From Actinomycetota bacterium (lineage in GTDB: Bacteria > Actinomycetota > Acidimicrobiia > Acidimicrobiales > JACDEA01): 54,920 bases of DNA. The stretch is from contig JACDEA010000001.1 of assembly GCA_013816725.1 (NCBI GenBank), forward strand, positions 1-54,920, given 5' to 3'. The notes beneath the pieces are model-generated. The model was not told the DNA's origin. It saw nothing but the letters and a program-made list of their open reading frames with translations, and ran no database searches. Made by a program: the position numbers and the translations under genes. Numbering within the stretch: position 1 is the first letter of the stretch; the number at the start of each line of letters is the position of its first letter. Positions 13,678 through 34,611 of the stretch are shown here, piece after piece.

Positions 13678-15858
13678 TCACCTGTTCCAGTGTCGATGGT
13701 CGCCGAGCGCGGCAAAGAAATCGTCCGGCGACTCGGCGATGCCCAACGCGTTTACCGGCAATCCAATGGCTTCGGCGTTCGGCGCCCCGACGAGTCCGAT
13801 TGTCTTGTGGTGACGAAATGCTTCCTGCACAAACATCGCAGTCGCTTCGTCGGGTTCCATTGCGAGCACGACCCCGTCGTATTCGACGGGGTCGCTGATA
13901 TGCGCCGACCGGTCTATGACCAACCCGTTTGCAAGTTTTCCGAAGTGCGGACCAATCACGATGACCTCGACGCCGAGTGGATCGGCGGCCGCGCGATACG
14001 CGTTCACCGCGCTTGGCTTCGTGTCTTCGTCTACCAACATGGCGACCATTCGGCCGCGGACGACAGGGTCTTGCGGCCGCGTCATGGACAACGCTTCGGA
14101 AGTCATCGCCGGTTCGACCACGGTGCCGCCAGGCGCGGAGATGCCGAGGTGGGCTGCGACCTGTTCTGCGAGGCCAGCGTCGACATTGGCGAGGTTGGCC
14201 ACCATGCGCACCTGAATACCCGGGCTGATGCACTTGCCCAGTTCGAAGCTGAAGGCTCCAGCCACGTGATCTTGCTCCACCGGTGAGAGCGAGCGGAAGA
14301 ACAACGTGGCTTGCGAGAAGTGGTCGTCGAACGAGGCCGGCCGCAGCTTGATTTTCGTCGCGTCGCGGGGCAGCGCCACGGGCGGGTGTGTATACGCGGT
14401 GCCGTCGAGTCGGGCGAAGGGACACCCTCCACCAAGTGAATTCGGCGTGTATGGCGCGACGCCCTGGTGCACCGCCGTCTGGTGGAAGCCGTCTCGGTTG
14501 TTGTCGTTGACCGGCGCGAGCGGACGGTTGATCGGAATCTGGTTGAAGTTCGGTCCACCCAGCCGGGTGATCTGCGTGTCGAGGTAGGAGAACAACCGAG
14601 CGTGCAGCAGAGGGTCGTCGGTGATCGCGATGCCGGGCACGAGGTGGCCGGGATGGAACGCAATCTGTTCCGTCTCAGCGAAGAAGTTGTCAGGGTTACG
14701 CGTCAACGTCATCGTGCCGACGGGGCGGACGGGACAGAGCTCCTCGGGCACGATCTTGGTTGGGTCCAGCAGATCGATGCCTTCGAAGGTTTGGTCGGGC
14801 GTGTCGGGCATCACCTGCACGCCGAGCTCGAACTGCGGAAAGTTGCCCGTTGCCACGCGCGCGTGGAGATCTCGGCGGTGATAGTCGGGGTCGATCCCGC
14901 CAAGCTTCTGGCTCTCCTGCCACACGAGGCCTTGGATTCCGGCGGTCGGCTTCCAGTGCCACTTCACGAGCGAGGTCTCACCCTTCCGGTTGCTCAACCG
15001 GAACGTGTGCACACCGAAGCCCTCCATGGTGGCGTAGCTGCGCGGGATCGCACGATCCGACATCACCCACATCAACATGTGGGTCGACTCGGGCTGAAGG
15101 CTGACGAAATCCCAGAATGTGTCGTGCGCGCTCTGCGCCTGCGGAATCTCCCGGTCGGGTTCGGGCTTCACCGCGTGCACGACGTCGGGAAACTTCAACC
15201 CGTCCTGAATGAAGAACACGGGGATGTTGTTGCCGACGAGATCGAAGTTCCCCTCCGCGGTATAGAACTTCGTCGCGAATCCACGCACGTCGCGGGCGGT
15301 GTCCATCGACCCCCGGGAGCCGGCCACGGTCGAGAACCGCGTGAAGGTGGACGTCGTCGCGCCCTTCTGCAAGAACGCAGCTGCGCAAATGTCGTTCAGC
15401 CCGCCGGTCGCTTCGAATACCCCGTGCGCACCGGCGCCGCGCGCGTGCACCACACGTTCGGGAATGCGTTCGTGGTCGAAGTGGGTGATCCGTTCGCGCA
15501 GATGGAAGTCGTCCATCAAGGTGGGGCCTCGATCGCCCGCCGTCAAGGAATTGTCAGCGTCGTCGACGCGCAAACCTTGCGCAGTGGTGAGCCGATCGCC
15601 AGCCTGCGCCCACGCGGCGGCGGATACGTCGTCGGTCGGGTTCGGGCTTGTGTGCGGCGCGACAAAGCCAGCGGCGCGCGCTGCCTCTGCCCGTGCGACC
15701 GCATTCGCCTTGCCCGTCTTGATCGGCTTGATTGGGGCCGATTGGGTCGAGGCGCTGGTCGCCTCTTCGCGATTCGGTGACCGCGCACCATCTTGAGCAA
15801 TCGGAGCTTTGGACCTATTGGGCCGTGCGGGGGTACGCGGAGATTTGCGCGCAGGCAT
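13678..15858 (-). CDS. katE: Large-subunit (HPII-type) monofunctional catalase
   Basis: 'RERITHFDHERIPERVVHARGAGAHGVFE', 'RFSTVAGSRGS', 'VGNNIPVFFIQD' are catalase core motifs. About 150 aa of DJ-1/PfpI-like C-terminal extension. Start taken at ATG 15858 (MPARKSPRT). Confidence 0.9.
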   Translation of the reverse strand: MPARKSPRTPARPNRSKAPIAQDGARSPNREEATSASTQSAPIKPIKTGKANAVARAEAARAAGFVAPHTSPNPTDDVSAAAWAQAGDRLTTAQGLRVDDADNSLTAGDRGPTLMDDFHLRERITHFDHERIPERVVHARGAGAHGVFEATGGLNDICAAAFLQKGATTSTFTRFSTVAGSRGSMDTARDVRGFATKFYTAEGNFDLVGNNIPVFFIQDGLKFPDVVHAVKPEPDREIPQAQSAHDTFWDFVSLQPESTHMLMWVMSDRAIPRSYATMEGFGVHTFRLSNRKGETSLVKWHWKPTAGIQGLVWQESQKLGGIDPDYHRRDLHARVATGNFPQFELGVQVMPDTPDQTFEGIDLLDPTKIVPEELCPVRPVGTMTLTRNPDNFFAETEQIAFHPGHLVPGIAITDDPLLHARLFSYLDTQITRLGGPNFNQIPINRPLAPVNDNNRDGFHQTAVHQGVAPYTPNSLGGGCPFARLDGTAYTHPPVALPRDATKIKLRPASFDDHFSQATLFFRSLSPVEQDHVAGAFSFELGKCISPGIQVRMVANLANVDAGLAEQVAAHLGISAPGGTVVEPAMTSEALSMTRPQDPVVRGRMVAMLVDEDTKPSAVNAYRAAADPLGVEVIVIGPHFGKLANGLVIDRSAHISDPVEYDGVVLAMEPDEATAMFVQEAFRHHKTIGLVGAPNAEAIGLPVNALGIAESPDDFFAALGDHRHWNR

Positions 15859-16386
15859 GATGCCTCCAGATCTAGGTACTCGGGCCGCGCTGTCGGACCC
15901 GCGATTGTGTGCCCATCGCCTACCCGAAGTCAGCAGCGAGTAAGCGTCGAGAAGAGCGGGTAATGCAGCGTGCTCGCACGACGCACTGACGAAGAGACTC
16001 AGTTCGATCAGGGCAGTACGTGGCACGGAAAGCGCGATGTACGCGTCGACACGGTGCCGGACCCGAAAGTTCAAGCAGCGACAGACGCAATCATCCAGGT
16101 CACCTCGTCGAGAATTTGACGAAGACGACGCCACGAAGTCCAGGCCGTGCGGCCCGGAGATCAAACCGGTACTCGAGTCCCGAGACAGTCGGCCGCGTGA
16201 AACAGAACCGCTGGGTCATGTCCGCGTTGGCGATGCTGCTCGCCGTAGGGTGCCGGAGACTCAGCGTTGTCAGATGACGCTGACGGATGTGGCGACTATC
16301 GCGGAACGGTCATCTAGCGGGCCAGGCGGCGGACTTGATCTCAAGGTACGGGCTCGAAGAAGGCTCGGCGCGGTGAGGGTCGGCGG

Positions 16387-16908
16387 GTGTCGAAGACCGC
16401 ATACATCGACACCAAGACGCTGACGCGCGGCGACAAGTCGGTCACCGTTCAGCTGTACGCACGCAACGGTGCGATCGGGGTTACCGAGGTGCGCGACGGC
16501 GAACTCGAATTCATCGAGCTGCGCCGCGTCCGCACGAACCGGATCGCCGACAAAGGCGCGTTCCGTTGGTACAACGACTACGCGCTCCCGGAGTCCCACG
16601 GCGGCGGCACGGTGTCGGTTCGTCTCCACGGTGACAAGAGCGACAGGGCGCGGCGGTTGAACCGAACCGAGAACGTGCGGCCGATCCCTCCTGGGGATCC
16701 CGATTTCCAGCGGCTGTTCCGCATCCGCAACGACGCCGAGTCAATCAACCGCGGGATCGAGGACAGCCTCTACATCGGCCGCGCCCACAGCGTCGGAAGC
16801 AAGCGCCAGCTGCTGAACCTGCTCGGCTACGCGCTGATGGTCAACGGCATCGCGACGCTGCACCACCGCCGGCGGCTCGAGCAGCCGCCAACCGACCTCG
16901 CCGCGTAG
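16387..16908 (+). CDS. Hypothetical protein, possibly transposase/recombinase-related
   Basis: 173-aa ORF with 'RNDAESINRGIEDSLYIGRAHSVGSKRQLLNLLGYALMVN'. The family is not securely recognised. The last ~70 nt have a diverged copy at 8698-8775. Confidence 0.5.
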   Translation: MSKTAYIDTKTLTRGDKSVTVQLYARNGAIGVTEVRDGELEFIELRRVRTNRIADKGAFRWYNDYALPESHGGGTVSVRLHGDKSDRARRLNRTENVRPIPPGDPDFQRLFRIRNDAESINRGIEDSLYIGRAHSVGSKRQLLNLLGYALMVNGIATLHHRRRLEQPPTDLAA

Positions 16909-17115
16909 GCCTCCGCCGACAAACCCGGTCACCACGCCCGGGCTCTGACGCGTCCGGAGTCGGGTCGCGCGCACCAAGTTGGGTGTTCACAGGCTCGCTG
17001 CGCCCGAACACCTAGCATCAGCATCGCTGTCGGATGCCCGTCACGAGGTTTTGTGCCGCGTTTTCTACAGCCCCCGCCCCCGTAGCTCAGGGGATAGAGC
17101 ATCGGTTTCCTAAAC
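16838..17115 (+). repeat. Copy R2 of the flank + tRNA 5' half block (partner of 8698-8985)
   Basis: See 8698-8985. This copy contains the functional tRNA 5' half. Confidence 0.7.
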
Positions 17116-17147
17116 CGTGTGCGGAGGTTCGAATCCTCCCGGGGGCG
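17076..17147 (+). tRNA. tRNA-Arg (anticodon CCT)
   Basis: Folds by hand: GCCCCCG-TA-GCTC-AGGGGATA-GAGC-A-TCGGT-TTCCTAA-ACCGT-GTGC-GGAGG-TTCGAAT-CCTCC-CGGGGGC-G. 72 nt, no encoded CCA. Confidence 0.9.
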
Positions 17148-17259
17148 CAAGAATAAGTGCAGGTCACAGCGACTTTCTAGGGTGGCTGTAAGGTTCGCTG
17201 AGCCGAGCTGCCCATCCGAATCGCCACTCTTGCCCATCCGATGCGCGATGATGTCAGGC

Positions 17260-18456
17260 ATGGCCGGATCGATCCGCCAGCGAGGAAAGCAGTCGTGGGA
17301 GGTGCGTTCCTTCGTCGGCAAGGACCCGGTCACCGGCAAGAAGCAGTACATAACCAAGACGATCCGAGGCGAGCGCCGCGAGGCCGAGGTCGCGCTCGGC
17401 CGCATGCTCGGCGAGATCGAAGACGGCCAGTACGCCGTGCGCGCCGGCACCGTCGGCGAGCTGTGCGAGAAGTGGTTCGCCCAGGCCGAGCCCGACCTGT
17501 CGCCCTCGGTGGCACCGGAGTATCGCCGGCTGCTCGACAACCGGATCCTTCCTCGCTGGGGCAAGGTTCCGCTGCGCAGGCTCCGCACTGCCGACTTCGA
17601 CCTCTGGTACGCCGAGCTTCGACGCAAGGGTGCGCTCAACGGCGGTCCGCTCGCACCCAACTCGGTGATGCGGATCCACTCCGTGCTCCGACGCGCCCTG
17701 GGCCAGGGAGTCAAGTGGGGTTGGATCACGACGAACGCGGCAGCGAACGCATCGCCCCCGCGTGCGCGCAAGCAGCAGCTGAACCTTCCCGACCCTGCCG
17801 ACGTCGGCCGCCTTATCGAGGCAGCCGCGAGCATCAACCGGTCGCTACCGACCTACTTCCGTCTCGCCGCGGCCACGGGCGCGCGCCGCGGTGAGATCTG
17901 CGCGCTGCGTTGGAAGCACGTCGACTTCGAACGGCGCCGTCTCACAATCGCGCGCGGCATCGTCGAAGCCGGAGGCGAGCTGATCGAGAAGGACACGAAG
18001 ACTCACCAGGTACGGAAACTGTCCCTCGACGAGGAGACCGCCGCCGTTGTCCTCGCGCATCGGGACCGCTGCGCCGAGCTGGCGGAGCAGTGCGGTGCCG
18101 CCCTGTCGCCCAACGCGTTTGTGTTCTCGCACGAGGTCGACTTCTCGAAGCCCTGGCGCCCCGGCTACGCCACGCTCGCCTTCGGTCGGTTACGTGACGA
18201 GCTCGGCCTCAAGGGCGTGAAGCTGCATCACCTCCGCCACTTCAGCGCAACGCAGCTCCTGTCGCTCGGCATCGACATCCGCACCGTCAGCGGCCGCCTC
18301 GGTCACGCCAACGCGTCGACGACCCTCGACATCTACGCCCATTTCGTCGAGCAAGCCGATGAGCGGGCGGCGACCGCACTTGGCAGCGTGCTCGCAGGCG
18401 GTCCTGTGAGCGACGCCGGTAGTGAGACACCGAACATCACCGGCCCAAGCGGCTGA
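17260..18456 (+). CDS. Tyrosine recombinase / phage-type integrase
   Basis: 'MAGSIRQRGKQSWEVRSFVGKDPVTGKKQY' SAM-like N-terminus. 'ATGARRGEICALRW', 'HHLRHFSATQLL', 'LGHANASTTLDIYAH' form the R..H-x-x-R..Y catalytic set. Start upstream of 17260 rejected because it overlaps the tRNA. Confidence 0.9.
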   Translation: MAGSIRQRGKQSWEVRSFVGKDPVTGKKQYITKTIRGERREAEVALGRMLGEIEDGQYAVRAGTVGELCEKWFAQAEPDLSPSVAPEYRRLLDNRILPRWGKVPLRRLRTADFDLWYAELRRKGALNGGPLAPNSVMRIHSVLRRALGQGVKWGWITTNAAANASPPRARKQQLNLPDPADVGRLIEAAASINRSLPTYFRLAAATGARRGEICALRWKHVDFERRRLTIARGIVEAGGELIEKDTKTHQVRKLSLDEETAAVVLAHRDRCAELAEQCGAALSPNAFVFSHEVDFSKPWRPGYATLAFGRLRDELGLKGVKLHHLRHFSATQLLSLGIDIRTVSGRLGHANASTTLDIYAHFVEQADERAATALGSVLAGGPVSDAGSETPNITGPSG

Positions 18457-18483
18457 TGCCAACAGACCGTAGGGTCAAAGCCA

Positions 18484-20013
18484 ATGCGAGGCTTGCAAGC
18501 GCGCGTAGTCGACCGCCTGGACCTCACCAGCGCGCTCCAAGCTGAGGCGGTAGCCAGAAACAGCATCCTTCCGTCCCAGCCGGGCTTGCTCGAGCTGGCC
18601 ACTCAGCAAGCAGGACCGTTCACCGGATGGCTCGCGAGCCAACTCCAGTCTGGACTGCCCGTCGCTCCTCGAGCTGTCGTCAACGCACGAAAGCCTCGCC
18701 ACGGAACGAGGCCAGCACCGATCATGCCAATCCCCGAGAGAGTTGCATATCGATCCATCGTCGACTTCCTTCTTGGCGCCGAAGCGCCAGTCGCGCGCTC
18801 AAGGGAGGACTACCTCAGCTTCATTCGAGGGCCGGTGGACTACGTCATGCACAAGGCGGAGGGCATCCGCACCGTCGGGCTCTTGCTCGACGATGACGAG
18901 ATCAAGTACGTCGTGAAGAGCGATCTCTCGGCGTTCTACGAGTACATCGACCACGGGGTACTCGGCCGATCGTTGATCGCACGCACCCGGAACGTTGAGC
19001 TCGTCGAGGACCTGATGTCGTTCCTCGCGGAGATCGAGGGGCGGAGCTACGGGATCCCCCAGATGTTCGACGCGTCTGATCGCCTCTCCGAGCTGTACGC
19101 CCAGCTGATTCACGATCAGCTCTCACGGCGGGGGTACCTAGTCTGGCGATTCAACGATGACTTCCGCATCGGGGTGTCGGGGTTTGACGTCGCGCTCGAC
19201 GCCATCGAGGCGCTGTCCGAGGAAGCCCGATCCCTCGGCTTGATCATCAACGAGCAGAAGACGGTGAGTCCCAAGTTCGCGACCTACGCCATCGCTACCT
19301 TCGGCCTAGATAGCGTCGACGATGAGATCCCGTCGGACGAGCAGGACGAAGTCGAAGCGGCCGTAGCGGACTACACCGAAATGTTCGGCGACGCAGACGA
19401 TGCGGTCACCCTGCTGCAGCGCGCAGTCTCGGGTGACTACGAGTGGAATCTGAGTGACGTCAGTCAGGACCAGGTCGGCCAGCTACGCCGAGCGATCTGG
19501 AGCGTCGTTCGTGAGCGAGATGCGCGCGCCGTGCCGGCGCTCGTTCCACTTGCGGTCTTCGTGCCGTCGTTGACGCCAGCAATCTGCCGCTACGCCGAGG
19601 CCTTGGCCGAGGAACGGCAGCAAGAGGTCGCAGGTGTCGTTGACACGATCATCGCCCGCGTGTCGCTCGGCGGTTGGCAACGACTGTGGTTCAACCGTCT
19701 GCTCCGGACATCGAAGTTGCTCCTGCAGCCGGCGCCGGGTGATACGACTACGCGTATTCGTTTTGCTGAGGCGTGTGCGGGCGACGGGCGTCACCCAGCC
19801 ACTCGAGCAGAAGCCATTCTGGCGCTTGCTGGTACGGGAACGGTCTCGGTGCGCGAGATCGCTGATTTCCTTGTAACTGAGCCTCGCGCTCTCGCTTCGT
19901 GGTACGTGATGGCTGCGGGCGAATGTGTCCGCACCGAACGCGACCAGAAGGTGCTACGCGGCATCAGCGGTTCGGACCCGCTCTATTCGATGCTCATCGA
20001 CGCGTTGTCATGA
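18484..20013 (+). CDS. Reverse transcriptase-domain protein (UG/Abi-like) with helical C-terminal region
   Basis: Motifs in order: 'PIMPIPERVAYRSIV', 'VVKSDLSAFYEYID', 'GIPQMFDASDRLSELY', 'WRFNDDFRIGV', 'LGLIINEQKTV'. About 230 aa of helical tail. Confidence 0.8.
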   Translation: MRGLQARVVDRLDLTSALQAEAVARNSILPSQPGLLELATQQAGPFTGWLASQLQSGLPVAPRAVVNARKPRHGTRPAPIMPIPERVAYRSIVDFLLGAEAPVARSREDYLSFIRGPVDYVMHKAEGIRTVGLLLDDDEIKYVVKSDLSAFYEYIDHGVLGRSLIARTRNVELVEDLMSFLAEIEGRSYGIPQMFDASDRLSELYAQLIHDQLSRRGYLVWRFNDDFRIGVSGFDVALDAIEALSEEARSLGLIINEQKTVSPKFATYAIATFGLDSVDDEIPSDEQDEVEAAVADYTEMFGDADDAVTLLQRAVSGDYEWNLSDVSQDQVGQLRRAIWSVVRERDARAVPALVPLAVFVPSLTPAICRYAEALAEERQQEVAGVVDTIIARVSLGGWQRLWFNRLLRTSKLLLQPAPGDTTTRIRFAEACAGDGRHPATRAEAILALAGTGTVSVREIADFLVTEPRALASWYVMAAGECVRTERDQKVLRGISGSDPLYSMLIDALS

Positions 20014-20618
20014 TGCTGCTTCCCAAGCCCCTGACCACGATCGGGGATGCAGCAGTTCTGCTCACGCGAACCGCTCTGTACGAGTACCACTCGACGCCGG
20101 CCTTGCTGCTTACATTCGGGCGGATCTTCAGGTCGTCAACGGCGCTGGGCACTTACGAACTCGGCAACGCCCGGGCTCAGGCCTACTTCTTTCGGATTGT
20201 TGCCGTGGTGGACGCGTATACCGACGCTGCCCTCGAGGCGATGTTCCGCGGCGTTGTCCCGCCTTCATCGCCGGCTGCGGTCCGGCTGCTGGAAAGCCAC
20301 TTGCTCGACGCGACGCAACGGTGGGAGTCGCGAAAGAGGTCATTCGCAGACCATCACTCGTTGTCACTTGGGGACGCTGCCAATGGCTTTCCCCAATGGT
20401 CAAAGCTCGACGGCATGATCGAAGTGCGGAACTCGATCGCGCATGGTCTTGGCTCCCTCACGCGCCAGCAACGGCAACATGCGACGAGAACCGCTGGGCG
20501 CTGTAAGCAGGTCGGAGTCCGCATCGAGGCTGGGGAGGTCATCGTCGACAACCCGAGTCTCGTAACGGCCGGAGACGTGGCGGAGGACTTCATCCGTTGG
20601 CTCGATCAGAAGATCTGA
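20010..20618 (+). CDS. HEPN-like protein (Rx4H motif), translationally coupled to the RT
   Basis: ATGA overlap with the RT stop at 20010-20013. 'MIEVRNSIAHGLGS' carries R-N-x-x-x-H. Mostly helical-looking, 202 aa. Confidence 0.6.
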   Translation: MMLLPKPLTTIGDAAVLLTRTALYEYHSTPALLLTFGRIFRSSTALGTYELGNARAQAYFFRIVAVVDAYTDAALEAMFRGVVPPSSPAAVRLLESHLLDATQRWESRKRSFADHHSLSLGDAANGFPQWSKLDGMIEVRNSIAHGLGSLTRQQRQHATRTAGRCKQVGVRIEAGEVIVDNPSLVTAGDVAEDFIRWLDQKI

Positions 20619-20725
20619 CCTAGTCGCTTTCGACCCGGGTCGTCCTGTTCTGCGTAGCGACCTCGACCGAGGCTGGCAGGACGCGACGGAGACGTGTTCT
20701 TGACGCGTCGACGCGGGTGAAGGAG

Positions 20726-23700
20726 TCAGGCGAACGACGTGTCGTCGCGCTCCCCCTCATCGCGCATCGAGTGGTAGGTCGCCTTCATGACTTCGTGCTC
20801 GATCATCGCTGCGAGCTCGGGGTTCGTGAGCAGGAGGTTGTAGAGACGCTCGGTGTGTGCCTCCGTATCGAGGATCGCGCTCTTGAACTTCGCGCTGAAC
20901 TCAAGGGCGAAGTTGTCGATTGGGTTGGCCTTGGCGTACGTCTTCAGCTCCTCGTTCGCGCTGAGGGTGATCTGCACCTTCTCGGCCTCGAGCCGGTCGC
21001 GCTCGTCGAGATCGGTCCCGAACCGATCGTTGATTTCGGCGATCAGCTCCGCCAGGCTCGCCTTCATGGCCTCGTGCCTGCCGCCAAGACCCTCACCGAT
21101 GAAGACCTTGGATGCCTCAATCTCGCCGGGCGCGAGCTTGAGGTCTTCGGAGCCGTGACCTTTGAGGCGGAGATGCGTGAGGACAAGGTCGTCGCCAAGG
21201 TCGAGCCCGCCCGTCGCTGCGTCGCGCAGGAGTGTGCGGAGCGCTTTGACGTAAACGTAAAGCTTCTCGAGCTCGGGATCGGTGAAGGGCATGACTTGAG
21301 AGAGGAACGCGTAGGCGCGTGTGAACTGGTCGACGCCGTCCTTCAACGCGTCTTGAGCGTCCTCGGCGAGCTCGCCGAACCGCACCACGGCCGGATCGAG
21401 ATTGGCGTGGATCACCTTCAGGCTGCGCTTCGCAGGATCGACGCCGAAGTACGCCTCAGCCGCCTTGGTGATCTCGATCGGGTCGAAGATGCCTGCACCC
21501 ATGATGCGCGCCCGCAGGTCGTAGAGGACGTTCGCGTCCGTCGGCTCGACGATGACCGCCTCGTAGTAGCGCTGGAATGCGTTGCGGATCTCGTCGGCCT
21601 CGTTGCGAAAGTCGAGAACGAAGGTGTCCGCCTTGCCAGGGGCGCCGCGGTTCAAGCGCGAGAGCGTCTGCACCGCGTTGAGCCCGGACAGCTTCTTGTC
21701 GACGAACATCGTGTGCAGGTACGGCTCGTCGAAGCCCGTCTGGAACTTCTCGGCGACCACCATGACCTGATAGTCGCCGGGTGAGTACGGCGGCTCGCCC
21801 TTGAATCGGCGTGCGGTCTGCGAGTCGGGGAACGCGTTCATCGAGGACTCCGTCACCGACTGCCCGCTGTCGTCGATGACCTCTCCCGAGAACGCCACGA
21901 GCGATTTGATGTCGGTGTACTGGTGCTCGGCGATATGACGGTCGATCGCCTGCTTGTAGCGCACCGCCGCAGCACGCGACTCCGTCACCACCATCGCCTT
22001 CGCCCGACCCCCAAGTGCGGAGCCGGTGTGGGCTCTGAAGTGCTCAACGACGATCGCTGCCTTCTGTCCGATCATGTGCGGGTGCTGCCAAATGAACTTG
22101 CGGATCGCTGAACTGGCCTTGCTGACGTCTACTTCGATCTCTGCGTCATCCGTGGTCGCGAGCCGGAAGTACGTCGAGTACGTCGTGTAGTTGGCGAGCA
22201 CGTCGAGAATGAACTCTTCCTCGATCGCTTGGCGCATCGTGTAGAGGTGGAACGGTCGCTTGACCTTGTCGGGTCCGAGCACCCCAAAGAGCTCCACGGT
22301 CCGATCCTTCGGTGTTGCCGTGAAGGCGAAGAAGCTGAGGTTCGGCTGCCGCCCGCGGGCAGCGACAATCGCCGCCAGGGCTGTTTCCGCGTCGAAGTCG
22401 TCGTCGTCCTCTGACGCGTCCGCTGCCTTGGCCCCGAGCGCCTGCTTGAGCGCCGTCGCAGCGTCGCCTGTCTGGGAGCTGTGCGCCTCGTCGACGATGA
22501 TCGCGAAGCGTTGTGAGGCCAGGTCGACGTCGTCGAGCTTGGCGATTACATGAGGGAACGTCTCCAGCGTGACGGTGACGATCTGGGCCTTGCCTCCGAG
22601 CGCCTTTGCCAGCTCCTCGGACTTCGAGTCCTTCTTGCCCTCGACGCTGACGATCGTCCCGGGGACAGATTCGAACTGGGAGACAGTTGCACGAAGCTGC
22701 TCGTCGAGAGCGCGGCGGTCGGTGACGACGATGATCTTGTCGAAGACCTTGGCGTCATCGTCAGCATGCAGCAGCGAGAGCCGGTGTGCCAGCCAGCCGA
22801 TGGAGTTCGACTTGCCGGAGCCGGCAGAGTGCTGGACGAGGTAGCTCTGGCCGGGGCCGCGTTGTTTCGCGTCTCCCGCTAACCGGACGACGGCGTCCCA
22901 CTGGTGGAAGCGTGGGAAGATCACCGTCGTCCTGGCTGGCTTCTTGTCAAGCGCCGGCTCCACCACACGCTCGACGAAGCGGCCGAGGATGTCGAGCCAC
23001 GAGTCGTACGCCCACACCCGTTCCCACAGGTACGCCGTGGCGTAGCCATCAGGGTTCGGAGGATTGCCCTTCCCGCATGACAATTCACCCGGGGCGCTGC
23101 CCCGGTTGAACGGCAGGAACGCGGTGCTCGCGCCTTCCAGGCGAGTCGTCATGTACGCGAGCCGGGTGTCGACCGCGAAATGAACGAGGGCACGTCGGAA
23201 GAGCACGTCCTTCGAGTCGCGGTCGTGCTCGTACTGCCAGATGGCGTTGTCGACCGTCTGACCATTCAGATGGTGCTTGAGCTCGGCCGTCGCCACCGGC
23301 AGCCCGTTGACCATGAGGCAGAGATCAACACTGTTGCCGTGGGCCGCCGAGTAGCGGAGCTGGCGAGTGACCGTCAGCCGGTTCTTCGAGTACGCCTCCA
23401 CTAGCTCCGGATTCTTGGAGTGCGCTGGTCGAAAGTAGGCAAGGTCGAACCTGACACCCTGCTCCTCGACTCCCTTCCGAAGCACGTGCAGCGTGCCGTG
23501 CTTGTCGAGCTCCGATGCCAGCCGCTGCTTGAACTTGAGCTGCGTCTCGTTGGGGTCGCCGCCGAGGCGATCGATCAGCTTGTTCCACTTCTCGATCTGC
23601 GTCGCGCCGATGAACGCGAGCAGCTCGCTTCCGTCGATGCCGAGCTTGACGTCATAGAAGTCGTTGAGGCCCTGCGTGTAGCCGCCGTGTGCGACGAGCG

Positions 23701-23749
23701 ACTCGACGACGTCGGTCTCAAACTGCCTTTCCTTCACGTGTTCAGGCAT
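20726..23749 (-). CDS. hsdR: Type I restriction enzyme R subunit
   Basis: 1007 aa. 'MPEHVKERQFETDVVESL' N-terminus. 'QHSAGSGKSNSI' Walker A. 'IIVDEAHSSQ' DEAH box. 'TLSRLNR' helicase motif VI-like. Confidence 0.95.
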   Translation of the reverse strand: MPEHVKERQFETDVVESLVAHGGYTQGLNDFYDVKLGIDGSELLAFIGATQIEKWNKLIDRLGGDPNETQLKFKQRLASELDKHGTLHVLRKGVEEQGVRFDLAYFRPAHSKNPELVEAYSKNRLTVTRQLRYSAAHGNSVDLCLMVNGLPVATAELKHHLNGQTVDNAIWQYEHDRDSKDVLFRRALVHFAVDTRLAYMTTRLEGASTAFLPFNRGSAPGELSCGKGNPPNPDGYATAYLWERVWAYDSWLDILGRFVERVVEPALDKKPARTTVIFPRFHQWDAVVRLAGDAKQRGPGQSYLVQHSAGSGKSNSIGWLAHRLSLLHADDDAKVFDKIIVVTDRRALDEQLRATVSQFESVPGTIVSVEGKKDSKSEELAKALGGKAQIVTVTLETFPHVIAKLDDVDLASQRFAIIVDEAHSSQTGDAATALKQALGAKAADASEDDDDFDAETALAAIVAARGRQPNLSFFAFTATPKDRTVELFGVLGPDKVKRPFHLYTMRQAIEEEFILDVLANYTTYSTYFRLATTDDAEIEVDVSKASSAIRKFIWQHPHMIGQKAAIVVEHFRAHTGSALGGRAKAMVVTESRAAAVRYKQAIDRHIAEHQYTDIKSLVAFSGEVIDDSGQSVTESSMNAFPDSQTARRFKGEPPYSPGDYQVMVVAEKFQTGFDEPYLHTMFVDKKLSGLNAVQTLSRLNRGAPGKADTFVLDFRNEADEIRNAFQRYYEAVIVEPTDANVLYDLRARIMGAGIFDPIEITKAAEAYFGVDPAKRSLKVIHANLDPAVVRFGELAEDAQDALKDGVDQFTRAYAFLSQVMPFTDPELEKLYVYVKALRTLLRDAATGGLDLGDDLVLTHLRLKGHGSEDLKLAPGEIEASKVFIGEGLGGRHEAMKASLAELIAEINDRFGTDLDERDRLEAEKVQITLSANEELKTYAKANPIDNFALEFSAKFKSAILDTEAHTERLYNLLLTNPELAAMIEHEVMKATYHSMRDEGERDDTSFA

Positions 23750-24446
23750 TCAGAAGCCCTTCCAAGGGCGCGCCGGTCATCACGGTTGTGATGAGGGCCT
23801 GGCGGCGCTCGTCGAGCAGGCCGAAGCCGCCACTCCCGCGGGGGCCCAGCATCTGCTCGTGCTCAAGTGAGATCGCGTCGAGATGAGCGGTTTCATCATC
23901 GAGGAACTGTGCTCGCATCTCCTGTTCGGCATAGTCCGGCGGGGTTGGGATGCCGATGCTCCCAAGGTCGGCGGCGTTCACCGCCGGGTAGCTGACTCCG
24001 ACAGAGCGCGCAACGACTTCCTCGACGAATGGGCTTGAGCGCAGCCACCAGTACAGGTATCGAGGCTGGACCTGCTCGACCCGTGGCGTAAGAGTCGCGA
24101 AGCCCGTCGATACCACGCAATGGGCGACAGGCGCATCGATGTACGCGATCGCCTTCAAGTAGGTGCGGACTGTCGAGACGATGGAATCGCCGACGCGAAC
24201 GAGACGCCGCGCCCGCGAGGGCGCCGCAGAGAACGGCATCTCGTCGCGGGCTGAGAACGAGCCAGTAGAGCTCACGGTGCTGATATCGATGTAGTCGATT
24301 GTCCGGTCCGGGTCCGTTGTCTCCGGCAGGGACTCGCGGTTGATCGCGGCCACGTTCTTGATTCGCCACCAGGTCCATGCACTCGGCACGTCGCCCATTG
24401 CCGCGTTCAGTGGGGCAGATGAGTGGCGTAGACCGGTTCCGTTCAC
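23742..24446 (-). CDS. hsdS: Type I R-M specificity subunit, half-length (single TRD)
   Basis: 234 aa. 'GDSIVSTVRTYLKAIAYID', 'VVSTGFATLTP' and a C-terminal helical conserved region. GTG start overlaps the stop of the hsdM tail frame. Its stop overlaps the hsdR ATG by 8 nt. Confidence 0.8.
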   Translation of the reverse strand: MNGTGLRHSSAPLNAAMGDVPSAWTWWRIKNVAAINRESLPETTDPDRTIDYIDISTVSSTGSFSARDEMPFSAAPSRARRLVRVGDSIVSTVRTYLKAIAYIDAPVAHCVVSTGFATLTPRVEQVQPRYLYWWLRSSPFVEEVVARSVGVSYPAVNAADLGSIGIPTPPDYAEQEMRAQFLDDETAHLDAISLEHEQMLGPRGSGGFGLLDERRQALITTVMTGAPLEGLLNA

Positions 24447-24618
24447 GGCGCGATCTCCCCGAGCAAGGTGAGGATCCGCTTCTGAGTGAGAGATATGTCC
24501 TTGTCGATCTCACCAATGGGACGTGGCGCGGCGTAACGGTAGAACAGCCGAGTGAATGGGAGTTCGTAGCCGACCTTCGTGCGGGAGTCGTCGATCCACG
24601 CGTCGGGCGCTGCGGGCC

Positions 24619-26475
24619 TCACCTCTGGTCGATGAACTCGTCGATGTCCTCATAAAGGGGGACGTTCTCGGTGTCGCGGAGCTCAGGGTCGGGCTCGAAG
24701 GCCTTGTTCGTCTTCACAGGGTCGGCGTAGGGATCCCTCACCATCGCTGCCGCGATCACTGCCTTCCGGACCGGTGCTCCCAACTTCCCGACCTTCGTCC
24801 AGATCGGCGCCAGAGCCACCTCGAGATCAGCGAGCGTGTCGAAGCTCGAGCCGACCAGACTTGCGATCGCCTCCGTCAGTGCGTCGGCTTGGCCACCGAG
24901 CTTGACCACCGGCGATGCGGTGGAGAGCGCCCTCACCGCCTCGCCGGTGATCGCGTACCGGACCCGGAGCGGGCGTTCGACAGTAACCTTGCGATAGCCG
25001 AACGCTGAGTTCGGCAGGACCTGCGACCGGTCCGTCTCGGCGAAGTCCTCGTACAACTGCGTGATCTGTGTGATCTGGGCGGCGCTGAGCTCGTTGCGCT
25101 TGTTGCCGAGGCTCGGCTTCATCTTCACGAATAGGTCGCGCGCGTCGAGGAGTTGCACGTGCCCTTGCCGCTCTGGTCGCTTCCGGTTCGTGACGACCCA
25201 GATGTAAGTGCTAATTCCGGTGTTGTAAAAGAGCTGGTCGGGCAGGCCGATGATGGCGTCGAGCCAGTCGGTCTCGATGATCCACCGCCGGATTTCACTC
25301 ATCCCGCTACCCGCATCGCCGGAGAAGAGCGGTGACCCGTTGAATACCACAGCGATGCGGCTGCCGCCTTCGTCAACAGCGCGCATACGCGAGATCATCT
25401 GTTGCAGGAAGAGGATTTGCCCGTCGGTCGTGCTGGGCAGGCCGGCGCCGAACCGTCCCTCGAAGCCGAGCTGTGCATGCTCCGCCTTGACTGGCTTCTC
25501 AATCGTCTTCCAGTCCTTGCCGTAGGGCGGATTGGCGAGCATGTAGTCGAACTGCTTGCCGGCAAAGGCCGGACTGGTGGTCTCGTCCCCTCCGTACTTC
25601 GTGAATGTGTCGCCGAACGCGATGTGCGCGTTGCCTTGTCCTTTGAGGAGCATGTCGGTCTTGCAGACGGCGTAGGACTCGGGCTGCACCTCCTGGCCGA
25701 ACAGGTGCATCCGGGCTGAGGGATTGATCGCTCGCAGGTGCTCCTCTGCGACCGACAACATGCCGCCGGTTCCACACGCAGGGTCGTAGACCGTGAAGAT
25801 CTTGCCTGGAGCGAGAAGGCGGTCTTCATCGGCGAACAGGACGTTGACCATGAGCTCAATTACCTCTCGCGGCGTGAAGTGCTCACCGGCTTCCTCGTTC
25901 GAAAGGTCGGCCGTGACGCGGATCAGCTCCTCGTAGATGTACCCCATCTCGAGGTTCGAGACCACGTCTGGATGAAGGTCGATCTCGGCGAACTGCTTGA
26001 CGACCATGTAGAGGATTTCCGCCTCCGCCATCTTGTCGATCTGGTTGGGCAACCCAAACCGGAGCAGTGCGTCACGGGCGTTCGGGGAGAACCCGCGGAC
26101 GTACGCGTGAAAGTTCCGGCTGATGTTGTGCTGATCGGCGAGGAGCGCGCCGAAGGTGAATCTCGAGGCGTTCCAGAAGGGCTGGCCGGCGAGGTGGCTC
26201 AAGACGTCGGTGGCGGCGTCCCACTTGTCGGGCCCGAGTTCGCCTGCCTTCGCGACGACCTTGTCCTTCGTCGGCTCAAGAACGCAGTCGAGTCGACGCA
26301 GCACACATAACGGCAGGATCACGTCTTGGTACTGGTGCCGCTTGTAGTGGTCGCGGAGGGTCTCCTTCACCGACCAAATGAAGGAGATCTTCTCCCGCTG
26401 TTTCGCGCTCAGGCCGGCGGCAGGCGTCGGGACGGTTTCGTCGGTCACCATGGCTCCTCGATCGATGTCAGACAC
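24619..26475 (-). CDS. hsdM: Type I R-M N6-adenine DNA methyltransferase (M subunit); C-terminal ~58 aa continue in another frame to 24443
   Basis: HsdM_N-like 'FIWSVKETLRDHYKRHQYQDVILPLCVLRRLD'. 'VYDPACGTGGML' SAM motif I. 'MLANPPYG' motif IV. Confidence 0.9.
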   Translation of the reverse strand: MSDIDRGAMVTDETVPTPAAGLSAKQREKISFIWSVKETLRDHYKRHQYQDVILPLCVLRRLDCVLEPTKDKVVAKAGELGPDKWDAATDVLSHLAGQPFWNASRFTFGALLADQHNISRNFHAYVRGFSPNARDALLRFGLPNQIDKMAEAEILYMVVKQFAEIDLHPDVVSNLEMGYIYEELIRVTADLSNEEAGEHFTPREVIELMVNVLFADEDRLLAPGKIFTVYDPACGTGGMLSVAEEHLRAINPSARMHLFGQEVQPESYAVCKTDMLLKGQGNAHIAFGDTFTKYGGDETTSPAFAGKQFDYMLANPPYGKDWKTIEKPVKAEHAQLGFEGRFGAGLPSTTDGQILFLQQMISRMRAVDEGGSRIAVVFNGSPLFSGDAGSGMSEIRRWIIETDWLDAIIGLPDQLFYNTGISTYIWVVTNRKRPERQGHVQLLDARDLFVKMKPSLGNKRNELSAAQITQITQLYEDFAETDRSQVLPNSAFGYRKVTVERPLRVRYAITGEAVRALSTASPVVKLGGQADALTEAIASLVGSSFDTLADLEVALAPIWTKVGKLGAPVRKAVIAAAMVRDPYADPVKTNKAFEPDPELRDTENVPLYEDIDEFIDQR

Positions 26476-26620
26476 TCAATGATCGTCGTTCTGCGGTCAG
26501 ACGTGCGTTCCGCCAGCTGCAAGCCCGACGAGCGATCCTCGACGAGGCACAACGCGGCACCGCACGGGCGCACGTGCTCCCGCGCACAGGACGCGGTGCG
26601 CCTGACCGAGCCACCGTCGG

Positions 26621-29600
26621 TCAGGGCATGTCGATTCCCGCGCCTTGGTCGATCTCGTGGGCGTTCTCGTAGAGGAGTTCGACTCGCTCATAGCGTTGAC
26701 GAGTCGCCCAGTCACTTGGCCGAGGGCCGAGGAACTCGTCAATCGTGCGAGCGCCCTCGGACGGTTGCCAGTCAGTAGAAGCCCAGTGGTTGCGCGCGAA
26801 CTCGGCGGCTTCGTCCCACTGGCAAGCACTGACGCTGGTGCCGTGAGGCCGCGCGCCGAGCAGACGTTCGATCGTCACCGAGGGCTCGATGCTGGTGGTG
26901 AGTCGGTGTTGGAGTCGCATGGCCACCTGCGCCTGCGCGAGAAGCGAGCATTCCATCTGCTCGGGCGCGTGGTCGGCAACGAACTGTTTGTGGGCGGCGT
27001 GCTCAGCCTCAAACTCTGCGAGCTGGTGCTCGTAGACGCGAAGGCGCGTCGAGTACCACGTTCTGGCCTTCACATCGGGCCGGGCGTTGAGAAGCGCGTC
27101 GCGCTTGCGACGCGCTGCGGTCACCTCGGAGCCACGGGACGGTGGACTGGCGGCCAAGATTCGCTCCAGCTCGCGGATGCGGGCGCGGATGTCGGTCGAA
27201 GTCGTCGTGCTCAGCACCTGGGCGACGGCGGCAGCACGTGGATCGACCTCGTGCGCCGTTGCCTTGGATCCCCGGTTGGCCATCGCGTCGGCAACGGTGT
27301 CGAGGCTCGGACGCTCGGGCTCAACGGCGTGGAGGCCCGTGTCGTCGGTGAGGTCGACCTCACCTTCGACGACGTAGATCCGCGTCTGGTGGCGAGCACG
27401 GGTGAGGGCGACGTAGCCCTCCTCGAAGCGGCTCGCGTCGGTCGGGTGGTAGCGGCCGGTCTGATGGGTCGCACCTTGAACGAGGTAGGTGGTGCGGGCG
27501 TAGGCGTGCTCAAGGTGTCCGTCGTCGAGGTACCTGGCCGGGAGCCTCACAGTGCCTTCCCGGTCGAACGCGACGAGGAGCTCGCGGCTCTGGACGTCGA
27601 CCTCTGTGATAGTGCCCACGCTGCCGTTCTTCACGAAAGCGCGTCGACCGGGTGCGCGCAGCGTTCGGTCGTTGCGACGGGCGATCACCTCGTCGCCGAC
27701 CATGAACTCGCTGCCCGCGACGAGGAGCGGTGGACCGCTGAGCGCGCCCTCAGCCTTGAGAAGCGCGCGGGCGCGTGCGTTGAGGGCGCGCTGCGTGGAG
27801 TTCGGTCCGGCGATCATCGGATCGCTCTCGCCGTGGAGGCGGCCGGCATACCAATCGGCGACCATCGCGTCATGGCACTCGCCGGCCGTGGCACAACGCA
27901 CGACCTTGCCGGCGTCGTCGTAGCGAGCGAGGGCGTCGGCGATGCGACCTTCGCGGTAGTCGGCGATGGCGAGGCGCTCGTCGGCCTCGACCTGACGGTT
28001 GTTCTCCACGAGCATCACGGCATCGGGAGTGTGGCTGGCGAGGTAGCGGAACACACCGCCGGTGTCGACGGCGGTGTGCTGGTCGGGGTCGCCGATGAGC
28101 TTCAGCGATCCGCGGGCGCGCGCGACGTGTTCGAGCAGTCGGGCGAGGTCGCGGGTCCCGACCATCGACGCCTCGTCGACGAGCAGGACGCCACGGTCGG
28201 GGAAGCCACCGAAGCGGGGGTCGCCGAGTTGGTTCAGGAGCCCCGCGATCGTCGTGCTGGCGACGCCGGTCGAGCGTTCCAGTTCGGCGGCGGCCGTCGC
28301 ACTGACCGAGCACCCCACCACGGAAACACCGCTGGCGAGTAGCGCAGCTGCGCAGGCCTCGGCGGCGTAGGTCTTCCCTGAGCCGGGTCGGCCGACGATA
28401 GGTTGCACGGTCGTGGTCGACTCGCAGACCGCGCGCACCATCGCTCGCTGTTCGTCAGACAGCTCGGGGCGCGCGGCGAGGGCTGCGTCGATGTGGTGGC
28501 CGTCGGCGGTCGGTGCGTGATAGCCGGCTCCCTCTGCAGCCACGGTCAGAACGTGCTCTTCGATGGCGAGCAGCTCGGGCGTGCTGAACAGCGCGAGCCC
28601 AGCCGTTCTGACGACGGTTCCTTCGCTCCCGATCGCGTGCTGGCGCCGGTGACCTCCGGTCGGGAGCAACGGCACGACTCGGCCTGAGCCGAGGAATCGA
28701 TCGGCGGCGCGCTCGATCTCGGCCGCGTGCATCCGGTCAGCGCAGTTGTTAGCGAGCCACTTGATGGCGTCGCGTCTGGTGAACGTGGACCTCTGCTCGG
28801 TCACACCTCTCGACCCGCCGGCGCGGTCGAGGGCAGCCTCGACCTCCTCGCGGGTGAACGGCGTCGGGGACTCGTGGCCGAAGCACGCTTGCACGGCGTC
28901 ATCGTCGAAGCCCGCCTCGGTTGCTCGGTCGCGCCACTGGCGGACCAGGATGTCGGGCGCGACGCCGTAGTCCTTGGCCGCCCGACTGGCGAGCGTCGCA
29001 GCCTGCCGAGCGCGCGCCGAGCTGTAGCCCGACTCGGCGAGCAGCGCCTCGATCTCGTCGCGGCGCTGACTGAACTCGGTGATCACGTCGTTCGGGACGC
29101 CGACGATCTCCGCCCAGCCGTTGTGGACCGGACTCCATCTGACGCCGAGGCGCTGGCTCAGCAGATGACGAAGGTGGGCCTGGTAGAGGTGACCACCCGA
29201 CAGCGCGTGGTCGTAGAGCGGTCGCCCATCGAGGGCGCGCCAGGTGTCCAGCGCGGTGAAGGTGAGGTTCGTGACGACGACGTGGGTGTGCAGGAGCGGG
29301 TCGCCAGCTCGGCTGGTGCGATGGTCGAAGGCCGCAGCGACCAGTCCGCGGGTGAGTACTCGGTCGCCCTTCGACCGGGCGAAGATCGCCTGGCCTTCGA
29401 GGTAGCGGACGACCTCGTCGACCGCCTCGCGGTGCGCGTCCCGGATGAGCGCGCGCTGGTGCTCGTCGCCGAGGGCCCAGAGGACCGACACGCTCTTGGG
29501 TGGTCGCAGGGTGACGTCGAAGCCCGGCCGCGACTTCGGCCGGTGATGCTCGGCGGCGTATCGGTTGAGCTCGCTGCGGCGAACCCGCCAGCCAATGCGG

Positions 29601-29983
29601 CCGGTCGCCTCGGAGACCGCCTTTTCCGCTGCGAGGACCCCGTGCCGGAGCAGGCGACGGACGTAGCGCTCGGAGCATCGGAGCTGCGATCCCGCCTCGA
29701 TCGTCGAGAGCCAGCCGTCGCGACCATCGGACACGTACGGCTCGGCGGCATCCGACCGATGACCGCCGACGAGTTGCTCGCCGGTGAACGGGTGGCGGCC
29801 CTCGAGCAACCGACGGAAGTGGTCAGGGTCGACCTGGCCCTCGAGACCGAGGTCGGCGGCGAGCGAGCCGACCCATCGTCCGGGGGCTTCGCCGTGGCCG
29901 AGGTAGTAGTCCTCGGCTGACGTCGCGATCTCGCCGACGTAGTACTCGGCTCCGCCCGGCCGCAGCCGGCCGATGCTCAGCAC
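26621..29983 (-). CDS. MobF-family conjugative relaxase (TrwC/TraA-like) with RecD-like helicase domain
   Basis: GTG start gives 'MLSIGRLRPGGAEYYVGEIA'. 'GRWVGSLAADLGLEG'. 'FDHRTSRAGDPLLHTHVVVTN' His triad. 'VGRPGSGKTY' Walker A. 'LLVDEASMV'. Confidence 0.9.
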   Translation of the reverse strand: MLSIGRLRPGGAEYYVGEIATSAEDYYLGHGEAPGRWVGSLAADLGLEGQVDPDHFRRLLEGRHPFTGEQLVGGHRSDAAEPYVSDGRDGWLSTIEAGSQLRCSERYVRRLLRHGVLAAEKAVSEATGRIGWRVRRSELNRYAAEHHRPKSRPGFDVTLRPPKSVSVLWALGDEHQRALIRDAHREAVDEVVRYLEGQAIFARSKGDRVLTRGLVAAAFDHRTSRAGDPLLHTHVVVTNLTFTALDTWRALDGRPLYDHALSGGHLYQAHLRHLLSQRLGVRWSPVHNGWAEIVGVPNDVITEFSQRRDEIEALLAESGYSSARARQAATLASRAAKDYGVAPDILVRQWRDRATEAGFDDDAVQACFGHESPTPFTREEVEAALDRAGGSRGVTEQRSTFTRRDAIKWLANNCADRMHAAEIERAADRFLGSGRVVPLLPTGGHRRQHAIGSEGTVVRTAGLALFSTPELLAIEEHVLTVAAEGAGYHAPTADGHHIDAALAARPELSDEQRAMVRAVCESTTTVQPIVGRPGSGKTYAAEACAAALLASGVSVVGCSVSATAAAELERSTGVASTTIAGLLNQLGDPRFGGFPDRGVLLVDEASMVGTRDLARLLEHVARARGSLKLIGDPDQHTAVDTGGVFRYLASHTPDAVMLVENNRQVEADERLAIADYREGRIADALARYDDAGKVVRCATAGECHDAMVADWYAGRLHGESDPMIAGPNSTQRALNARARALLKAEGALSGPPLLVAGSEFMVGDEVIARRNDRTLRAPGRRAFVKNGSVGTITEVDVQSRELLVAFDREGTVRLPARYLDDGHLEHAYARTTYLVQGATHQTGRYHPTDASRFEEGYVALTRARHQTRIYVVEGEVDLTDDTGLHAVEPERPSLDTVADAMANRGSKATAHEVDPRAAAVAQVLSTTTSTDIRARIRELERILAASPPSRGSEVTAARRKRDALLNARPDVKARTWYSTRLRVYEHQLAEFEAEHAAHKQFVADHAPEQMECSLLAQAQVAMRLQHRLTTSIEPSVTIERLLGARPHGTSVSACQWDEAAEFARNHWASTDWQPSEGARTIDEFLGPRPSDWATRQRYERVELLYENAHEIDQGAGIDMP

Positions 29984-30062
29984 GGTGACCGCCTCAGCAG
30001 GTTCCGCCCCAGGCGGAACCTGCAAGTCTTTGAACGCTTGTCAACGGCGAGCGGGAGGACGG

Positions 30063-30392
30063 TCACCGGGCAGTGCGAGTGACGGTGGATGCGGGCGCAT
30101 CGCCTGGGCGCGTTCGGGTCGGGCCTTGCTCGCGGCACGTCGGGAGCGGAGTTATCGCGGAGGGCCGACCAACGAGGTCATCGACCGCCCACTTGGGAAT
30201 CACGATGCGGCGGACGTTGAGCCGCAGGGCGTAGAGCTGTCCGTGATCGATCATGTTGCGGACGGTGCCGGCCGAGACTTTCAGGCGCACCGCCACCTCG
30301 CCGACCGTGTACACAAGCGGCGACTGCTGCGGGCCGGGCCAGTGCTGCTCGCCGGCGACCGGCTTCAACGGGGCGCAGTGGTGTCTTTCCAC
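30063..30392 (-). CDS. Excisionase-family (MerR-like) HTH DNA-binding protein
   Basis: 'VYTVGEVAVRLKVSAGTVRNMIDHGQLYALRLNVRRIVIPKWAVDDLV' is the typical excisionase-family helix-turn-helix. Confidence 0.8.
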   Translation of the reverse strand: MERHHCAPLKPVAGEQHWPGPQQSPLVYTVGEVAVRLKVSAGTVRNMIDHGQLYALRLNVRRIVIPKWAVDDLVGRPSAITPLPTCREQGPTRTRPGDAPASTVTRTAR

Positions 30393-33063: not shown

Positions 33064-33075
33064 CAGGTCAGCCGC

Positions 33076-34560: not shown

Positions 34561-34611
34561 GCCTCGATCCTCGCGCCTGTCACGCGGCCGCGTAGAGGGT
34601 TGGAGGTGCAC

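Follow-up and report, generated by a model that had tools for sequence, protein, structure and literature searches.

A UG22 reverse transcriptase and a probable HEPN-like partner encoded as a conserved gene pair in an Actinomycetota genome

The DNA analyzed here is a stretch of 54,920 nucleotides (nt), in the following called the window, from contig JACDEA010000001.1 of an Actinomycetota bacterium. It carries two adjacent genes on the forward strand, one for a UG22 reverse transcriptase (RT) of 509 amino acids (aa) at 18484..20013 and one for an RT-associated HEPN-like protein of 202 aa at 20010..20618, and these constitute an intact pair that co-occurs and co-evolves in related genomes. Over its full length the RT falls into UG22, a group of Class 1 within the UG/Abi enzymes, and its catalytic residues are intact. 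In our assessment, which places this reading a little above even, the locus is best explained as an intact two-gene UG22 system in which an RT producing untemplated DNA would act together with a HEPN effector. Systems of this kind are already known. Mestre et al. 2022 (NAR 50:6084; PMC9226505) listed UG22 with HEPN as a predicted, uncharacterized multi-gene Class 1 system, the partner being their 'cluster 79', and PADLOC provides hidden Markov models for both genes (RT_UG22 and RTasHEPN). PADLOC would flag the locus automatically; for a genome scan it is an ordinary find, which adds another copy to those known. No later publication on a system of an RT and a trans-encoded HEPN protein was found in the literature searched. 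The locus supplies an intact copy in an unambiguous context of a mobile island and restriction-modification (R-M) genes. Comparison with relatives further shows that the pairing is strict, that the two genes co-evolve, that an RNxxxH motif is invariant and a linker tyrosine conserved, and that no non-coding RNA (ncRNA) is present; concrete mutants and predictions follow from this. UG22 thereby bears on two questions, namely how untemplated DNA of Class 1 enzymes is coupled to an effector and whether, in contrast to AbiA, the HEPN component of RT systems acts catalytically.

An original prediction, made from the sequence alone, had described the locus as a UG/Abi-type RT with a separate HEPN-like partner and called it a split AbiA-like candidate defence system. 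Its two-component composition was borne out by searches against PADLOC-DB. The RT matched RT_UG22 with an E-value of 2.2e-116 (387.7 bits), residues 5-506 being aligned to profile positions 2-474 of 476, and the partner matched RTasHEPN with 8.7e-33. The next-best groups for the RT were UG21 (84.5 bits) and Drt8 (70.7), and AbiA was absent among its 25 best PADLOC matches. Likewise, UG22 relatives scored 269-512 bits with the UG22 profile vs 16.8-25.3 bits with that of AbiA. The score of the window RT (388 bits) compares with 455-512 bits for the copies from Rhodococcus and Glaciihabitans (L036), and the window copy belongs to a somewhat divergent UG22 sub-clade. Even for distant members, among them one on a Rhodococcus plasmid, UG22 and RTasHEPN remain the best-scoring models.

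The RT open reading frame (ORF) contains the RT motifs in canonical order (PIMPIPERVAYRSIV, VVKSDLSAFYEYID, GIPQMFDASDRLSELY, WRFNDDFRIGV and LGLIINEQKTV). Conservation was counted over 37 intact RTs, all of which retain D147, F151, Y152, D156, H157, G190, P192, Q193, D225, G252 and K259; D226 is retained in 36 of them. The window RT has D147 (codon 18922-18924, forward strand) as well as D225 and D226 of the FNDD motif (19150-19161, forward strand). In a structure predicted by AlphaFold2 from 32 homologues (predicted local distance difference test, pLDDT, 88.2), the protein consists of a fingers/palm core of residues 1-274 (18484..19305, forward strand), also supported by the conserved residues and by a sub-threshold match to Pfam RVT_1 at residues 138-261, a disordered acidic linker of residues 275-300 (19306..19383, forward strand; pLDDT <50), and 12 consecutive helices in residues 304-508 (19393..20007, forward strand). 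The latter form an alpha-helical repeat domain of the alphaRep or HEAT-like type, with a weak match to Pfam HEAT_2. Searches with Foldseek against the PDB gave DRT4/UG15 (E ~1e-10, TM 0.53-0.58), DRT6, AbiK, Abi-P2 and AbiA as the best full-length matches, all of them Class 1 UG/Abi enzymes. As modelled, the architecture is that of Class 1, with an RT core, a flexible acidic linker and an alpha-solenoid replacing the thumb. The linker harbors Tyr297 (codon 19372-19374, forward strand), a candidate priming tyrosine by analogy with AbiA, where its position corresponds to Tyr298. By eye-reading of the alignment rather than by machine counting, a tyrosine occupies this column in about 30 of the 37 RTs, and nearly all of the rest carry one only a few residues away.

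The ORFs and motifs of both proteins, their ATGA overlap, the RNSIAH motif and the 27-nt spacer upstream had all been located correctly by the original prediction, as checked in the ORF list and the raw sequence. The RT stop codon TGA (20011-20013) overlaps the partner ATG (20010-20012) in the tetranucleotide ATGA at 20010..20013 of the forward strand, which suggests translational coupling of the two genes. RT homologues of 509-511 aa align across 100% of the RT and the partner homologues are uniformly 202 aa long; because of this match in full length and size, both start codons are taken to be right. In the public annotation of the metagenome-assembled genome (MAG) ("Actinobacteria bacterium", H0W70_00090; P0001), the RT begins at Met81 and comprises 429 aa. 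It is 80 residues too short, and the N-terminal part dropped there (18484-18723) is conserved in all homologues. The spacer between the integrase stop and the RT ATG (18457-18483) contains the hexamer TAGGGT (18471..18476, forward strand), a candidate actinobacterial -10 element that ends 7 nt 5' of the ATG. TAGCGT is found at equal distance in three relatives (L001, L045 and L047) and TAGATT one base nearer to the RT start in a fourth (L011), the background frequency of such a -10-like site being ~1%. Since the hexamer fits the actinobacterial -10 consensus TAnnnT, the RT-HEPN transcript of the window's clade may be leaderless and have its own promoter. More distant UG22 relatives and clades have Shine-Dalgarno sequences in place of the hexamer.

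Co-occurrence of the two genes was determined in a sample of 44 RT loci, obtained by scanning the RT alignment against one genome per species. The loci are nearly all from Actinomycetota, with one from Chloroflexia. A same-strand partner ORF directly downstream of the RT was detected with the partner profile in 41 of them, and inclusion of contig-end fragments and of a broader profile added L027 (2.6e-52) and the Chloroflexia locus L039 (1.1e-11), giving 43 of 44. The sole locus without a partner (L037) has a truncated RT. Among 42 RT-partner pairs (the 41 loci and the window), the genes overlap by 4 nt (ATGA or GTGA) in 19, and 17 more have other overlaps or gaps of <=8 nt. Furthermore, four close metagenomic RT relatives on six contigs (L045-L050) all combine the RT with a 202-aa protein in the same overlap, amid wholly different neighbours. 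Pairwise identities of RTs and partners are correlated (mirror-tree r = 0.85), and none of 2000 Mantel permutations reached this value. A scan of 130 neighbouring ORFs for a third conserved gene revealed no family in >5 loci; therefore the system is considered to consist of two genes. Among plasmids, matches came from two Rhodococcus plasmids only, and the one examined carries both genes; 50,697 phage records yielded no match. An apparent RT-HEPN fusion of 630 aa, a close RT homologue from JGI data (P0013), was also considered and rejected, its 120-aa Arg-rich C-terminal extension being an out-of-frame read-through into the partner gene that looks like a frameshift or sequencing error and not like a genuine fusion.

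The second protein is probably HEPN-like. The window ORF contains IEVRNSIAHG, in which R-N-S-I-A-H (20427..20444, forward strand) is an Rx4H HEPN-type motif with R140 at 20427-20429, followed by N141, and H145 at 20442-20444. In the 50%-identity library, the partner family comprises 540 clusters at E <=1e-3. In 149 representatives of such clusters, across which the mean column identity is 28%, R140, N141, H145, W105 and G148 never vary, and R140 and H145 are kept in 42 of 42 locus-encoded partners. The cluster representatives listed are all short stand-alone proteins of ~100-217 aa. About 50 N-terminal residues of the window partner lie outside the PADLOC profile. Its AlphaFold2 model is all-helical (pLDDT 83). 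In Pfam, residues 125-147 of the window partner, which are the motif region, match HEPN_RiboL-PSP with E 0.28 (11.5 bits; cut-off 28.4). When relatives were scanned singly, the same family appeared below threshold in 15 of 33 and 36 of 149 (best E 3.2e-4). It is the only recurrent Pfam family in partner relatives; all other families, among them HEPN_Swt1, HEPN_MAE_28990 and HEPN_LA2681, were matched once each. In addition, weak matches of the partner to Csm6 are centred on the RNxxxH motif. The HEPN-like assignment is held to be probable, and unproven, because the invariant motif and the recurrent sub-threshold HEPN matches are all indirect but consistent; Mestre et al. 2022 (PMC9226505) likewise used the wording "remote homology" for the partner's link to HEPN. 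A search of the viral structure library BFVD with Foldseek gave no annotated structural match for the partner, and a profile search of a set of 5.8 billion proteins returned no member with a precomputed Pfam domain. As a separate observation, the Chloroflexia relative (L039) has an extra 204-aa ORF (4697-5311, forward strand) with a motif of the RNxxxH type (LRLRNWLAHDYF) just upstream of its UG22 RT, for which no PADLOC match was found.

RTs of some other kinds are accompanied by RNA components or repeats, and these were sought around the pair. A permissive Rfam search (E <=1) found only a tRNA (65 bits), with no msr/msd, intron ribozyme or other ncRNA. The flanks of six close loci (the window and five relatives from L001/L045-L050) were compared over 350 nt upstream and 300 nt downstream by alignment and BLAST, and nothing non-coding was common to them beyond the TAGGGT/TAGCGT hexamer 7-8 nt before the ATG and the coding bases of the RT start. 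The 107-nt spacer between the partner gene and the convergent hsdR (20619..20725, no strand assigned) is moderately structured by RNA folding (-56.7 kcal/mol, z = -2.0), has no conservation in relatives and no Rfam match, and is probably a convergent terminator region. A search for the template and variable repeats of a diversity-generating retroelement (DGR) in 14000-30000 gave only repeats of 30-45 nt at chance level.

These data bear on two rival explanations. The first takes the RT for that of a retron, group II intron or DGR and the neighbouring ORF for a chance association. It can draw on weak generic similarity to group II intron RTs, namely to PDB 6ar1 (1.7e-4) and, among the weak generic matches that were all that NCBIfam yielded, to the group II RT model TIGR04416 (35.8 bits). 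It is effectively refuted by the UG22 score, by a TIGR04416 score far below the cut-off of 300, by the lack of intron or msr/msd RNA and of template/variable repeat pairs in the regions searched, and by the partner in 43 of 44 loci. A retron is rejected on the UG22-best RT, the lack of msr/msd, the 27 nt available upstream and the unconserved flanks; a group II intron on the lack of intron RNA, the TIGR04416 score and a C-terminal alpha-solenoid in place of a maturase/thumb region; and a DGR on the lack of a repeat pair near the RT. The original prediction, which had judged retron and intron unlikely and had seen no DGR repeats, was right on all three, and the profile classification accordingly places the RT in UG22 and not in an intron, retron or DGR clade. 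The second rival explanation, an RNA-templated DRT (similar to Class 2/3 systems such as DRT2, DRT9 and DRT10) or retron-like system with an unrecognized ncRNA overlapping the flanking coding sequence, is rated as highly improbable. Several DRTs do require an adjacent ncRNA, and a novel one would be missing from Rfam. Against this stand the short upstream spacer, flanks unconserved among close loci, an Rfam result limited to the tRNA, a downstream spacer that is unconserved at z = -2, and the Class 1 architecture, in which a solenoid in thumb position precludes a template duplex in the case of AbiK.

The mode of action proposed for the pair is deduced from the Class 1 enzymes studied so far (AbiK, Abi-P2, AbiA, DRT4 and DRT6), because these prime on a tyrosine and synthesize untemplated single-stranded DNA (ssDNA). 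In this class, the helical domain sits in the thumb position, and a narrow cleft shuts out duplexes (AbiK/Abi-P2: PMC9508834). By analogy, the UG22 RT would not copy RNA but would prime on its own tyrosine, the candidate being Tyr297 in the linker, and its product would be untemplated ssDNA that remains covalently attached. The HEPN partner would dimerize and assemble with the RT. It would most likely be an RNase effector, because its RNxxxH motif is invariant, and it would be held silent by the RT-ssDNA complex. Phage proteins acting on ssDNA, such as single-stranded DNA-binding proteins, annealing proteins, helicases and nucleases, would then perturb the product and release or activate the RNase, with an arrest of growth or of phage gene expression as the outcome. 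A more specific alternative, which we regard as possible and put forward tentatively, describes UG22 as an RNA-free two-protein analogue of a retron. Here, the untemplated ssDNA adduct on the linker tyrosine, and not an RNA or a peptide, would serve as the 'antitoxin' for a HEPN RNase dimer, and the RNase would be set free once the adduct is captured or destroyed by phage proteins with ssDNA-binding, annealing or nuclease activity. If true, this would be the first Class 1 DRT to gate a trans-encoded nuclease effector through DNA of random sequence. A precedent for regulation of an effector by semi-random DNA adducts is DRT1.

Several points weigh against the preferred reading of an untemplated-DNA RT with a HEPN effector. 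In the window partner and its relatives, no Pfam HEPN model reached the gathering score. The Foldseek search of the partner against the PDB gave no match at E <=0.001 (best E 0.14), and HEPN proteins occurred in it only at E >2, with AbiV (9bj7) at E 2.5 and HepT (7bxo, 6m6w) at E 3-4 (TMt 0.46); single-sequence and profile searches found no PDB relative of the partner either. The choice of Tyr297 for priming is conjectural: the tyrosines known to prime are located at three different places in AbiK, DRT4 and AbiA. For AbiA, the one studied case of RT and HEPN, no RNase activity was observed and R/H mutants still defend, so that the role of HEPN may be a structural one alone. In Mestre et al. 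2022 (PMC9226505), the predicted defence function of UG22 was classed as 'inconclusive'; in the literature searched, "UG22" in the RT sense occurs only in that paper, and no experiment on a UG22 member was found. In accord with this rating, a recognizable defence gene lies within ~2.6 kb at only roughly one in five genomic loci, an estimate based on single-member families.

The main rival builds on the case of AbiA and supposes a mode without RNase, in which the partner would be a structural, AbiA-like subunit for dimerization or activation and immunity would come from the ssDNA product, as with DRT4, for example by toxic accumulation once a phage ssDNA-binding protein protects the ssDNA. In AbiA, HEPN mediates dimerization and is required for polymerase activity, the protein minus HEPN being monomeric and polymerase-dead, and its Rx6H motif is dispensable for defence, as the R581A/H588A mutants retain it. 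Furthermore, DRT4 and DRT6 work by ssDNA accumulation set off by a phage DNA-binding protein, and DRT4 is the closest structural match of the RT model. We consider this mode rather doubtful all the same: the invariance of R140, N141 and H145 at so low a mean identity is hard to square with a purely structural subunit, and DRT4, AbiK and Abi-P2 work without any partner.

The genomic context of the pair is a mobile island integrated at a tRNA gene. A tRNA-Arg(CCT) gene was identified by ARAGORN, and as the Rfam tRNA, at 17076..17148 (forward strand). Its 3' half, at 17107-17150 of the forward strand, is the attL-side integration core. It is followed on the same strand by a tyrosine integrase gene at 17248..18456 (Pfam Phage_integrase 4e-21, Phage_int_SAM_3 2.4e-6). 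As the longest integrase ORF begins at 17119 within the tRNA, the true start is probably the ATG at 17248-17260. The integrase is regarded as island context outside the RT system. Downstream copies of the tRNA-Arg 3' half are located at 35948-35992, 44179-44220 and 47774-47819. The first one (forward strand) agrees with 17107-17151 in 41 of 45 positions and marks the attR-side border, so that the first island spans ~17107-35992 or roughly 18.9 kb; this copy also has paired changes in the T-stem. These repeats indicate that at least three elements lie in tandem at the same tRNA. A copy of the tRNA-Arg 5' half with ~15 nt of upstream sequence was seen at 8922-8976, 8 kb before the intact gene and separated from it by a catalase gene (13678-16164); duplication and another insertion event are possibilities for its origin.

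The island order is integrase, UG22 pair, type I R-M system, TrwC relaxase/helicase, JAB-ThiF protein, a 494-aa ORF and an extracytoplasmic function (ECF) sigma factor. The type I R-M system (20726..26475, reverse strand), recognized by Pfam and PADLOC, comprises hsdR (20726-23749), hsdS (23742-24446) and hsdM (24619-26475) and belongs to the defence context rather than to the RT module. HsdS is only 234 aa long, a half-size protein with a single target-recognition domain, and its gene (reverse strand) overlaps hsdR by 8 nt. A protein of 1134 aa at 26621-30025 (reverse strand) combines a TrwC relaxase (Pfam TrwC 7e-82) with an AAA_30/RecD-like helicase and marks the island as an integrative mobilizable or conjugative element. 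At 31472-32836 (forward strand) a protein with a weak JAB match and a ThiF/E1-like domain is encoded (PADLOC E1-E2 8e-19), followed by the 494-aa ORF (33076-34560, forward strand), for which no Pfam or PADLOC match was found; the two may be a ubiquitin-like conjugation defence module of the same island. At the distal end, the ECF-type sigma factor gene (Sigma70_r2/r4) forms a pair (34600-35735, forward strand) with a 185-aa ORF without matches, the start of which overlaps the sigma factor stop and which may encode an anti-sigma factor. The RT, partner and R-M genes have a slightly lower G+C content (0.61-0.65) than the flanks (0.65-0.72). Taken together, the gene content suggests that the UG22 pair is cargo of a mobilizable island which is integrated at tRNA-Arg in an actinobacterial MAG and in which a type I R-M system lies beside the pair.

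This setting leads to a further explanation, an addiction or stabilization module of the mobile island, for which maintenance of the element would be primary over phage defence; its toxin would be HEPN, and its antitoxin the RT or the DNA made by it. The location 27 nt from an integrase on a relaxase-bearing island speaks for it, as do the recombinases and transposases that are the most frequent neighbours in relatives, an overlapping gene arrangement resembling toxin-antitoxin systems, and the inconclusive UG22 defence score (PMC9226505). However, the neighbours vary greatly and many different defence systems are among them, every characterized Class 1 UG/Abi RT is antiviral, and toxin-antitoxin and defence roles are not mutually exclusive, so that we judge an addiction module to be unlikely. 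The defence genes near relatives, each as a single case, are diverse and include R-M, AAA_15/21, DUF4365, pPIWI, a CBASS cyclase, Shedu, PARIS AriA, MADS, SoFic and others, and such neighbourhoods fit cargo of variable regions or defence islands.

Among known systems, type IX retrons (RT, ncRNA, HEPN and winged helix-turn-helix protein; cited in PMC9226505) resemble the pair in that an RT is combined with a HEPN effector, but they require an RT of the retron clade together with an msr/msd RNA, and this locus has neither. DRT1 offers a likeness in that DNA made by the RT is a regulator or 'antitoxin' of an effector, but it is a Class 3 RT-nitrilase fusion. AbiK and Abi-P2 (7r06-7r08) share the bilobal organization of RT and helical domain without a thumb and are protein-primed, template-independent polymerases (PMC9508834); they differ as stand-alone hexamers or trimers from Firmicutes plasmids or P2 prophages, without HEPN. 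DRT4 (UG15) and DRT6 (UG12), the best full-length structural matches, also consist of RT and alpha-solenoid and perform tyrosine priming and random ssDNA synthesis. In contrast to UG22 they are single-gene systems without a HEPN partner, their sequence identity to the UG22 RT is only ~13-15%, and Tyr125, the priming residue of DRT4, lies in the fingers and not in the linker.

AbiA of Lactococcus (8oz7) is similar in combining a Class 1 RT, a helical domain and a HEPN module. Its priming Tyr298 in a flexible linker between RT and helical domain parallels Tyr297 of UG22, and its protein-primed untemplated DNA synthesis is the likely chemistry of UG22 by analogy. Nevertheless, HEPN is fused to the C-terminus of the RT polypeptide in AbiA (AbiA-large), whereas in the window and its relatives an ORF of its own, with a start codon of its own, encodes the partner. 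The AbiA motif is a dispensable Rx6H (RNSNPVSH), that of the UG22 partner an Rx4H with invariant RNxxxH. The RT falls outside the AbiA group by profile, and the HEPN parts have no detectable sequence similarity (8oz7). With RT group, motif spacing and HEPN sequence all different, descent from a split AbiA, as 'split AbiA-like' might be understood, was rejected, and the term holds as an analogy only. The closest counterpart is UG22 with HEPN as defined by Mestre et al., which shares with the window locus the full-length profile matches, the gene order, the number of two genes, the alphaRep domain and actinobacterial hosts. From this system the window copy has no essential difference, being set apart by its divergent sub-clade, the N-terminal residues of its partner that lie outside the PADLOC profile and an apparently leaderless clade.

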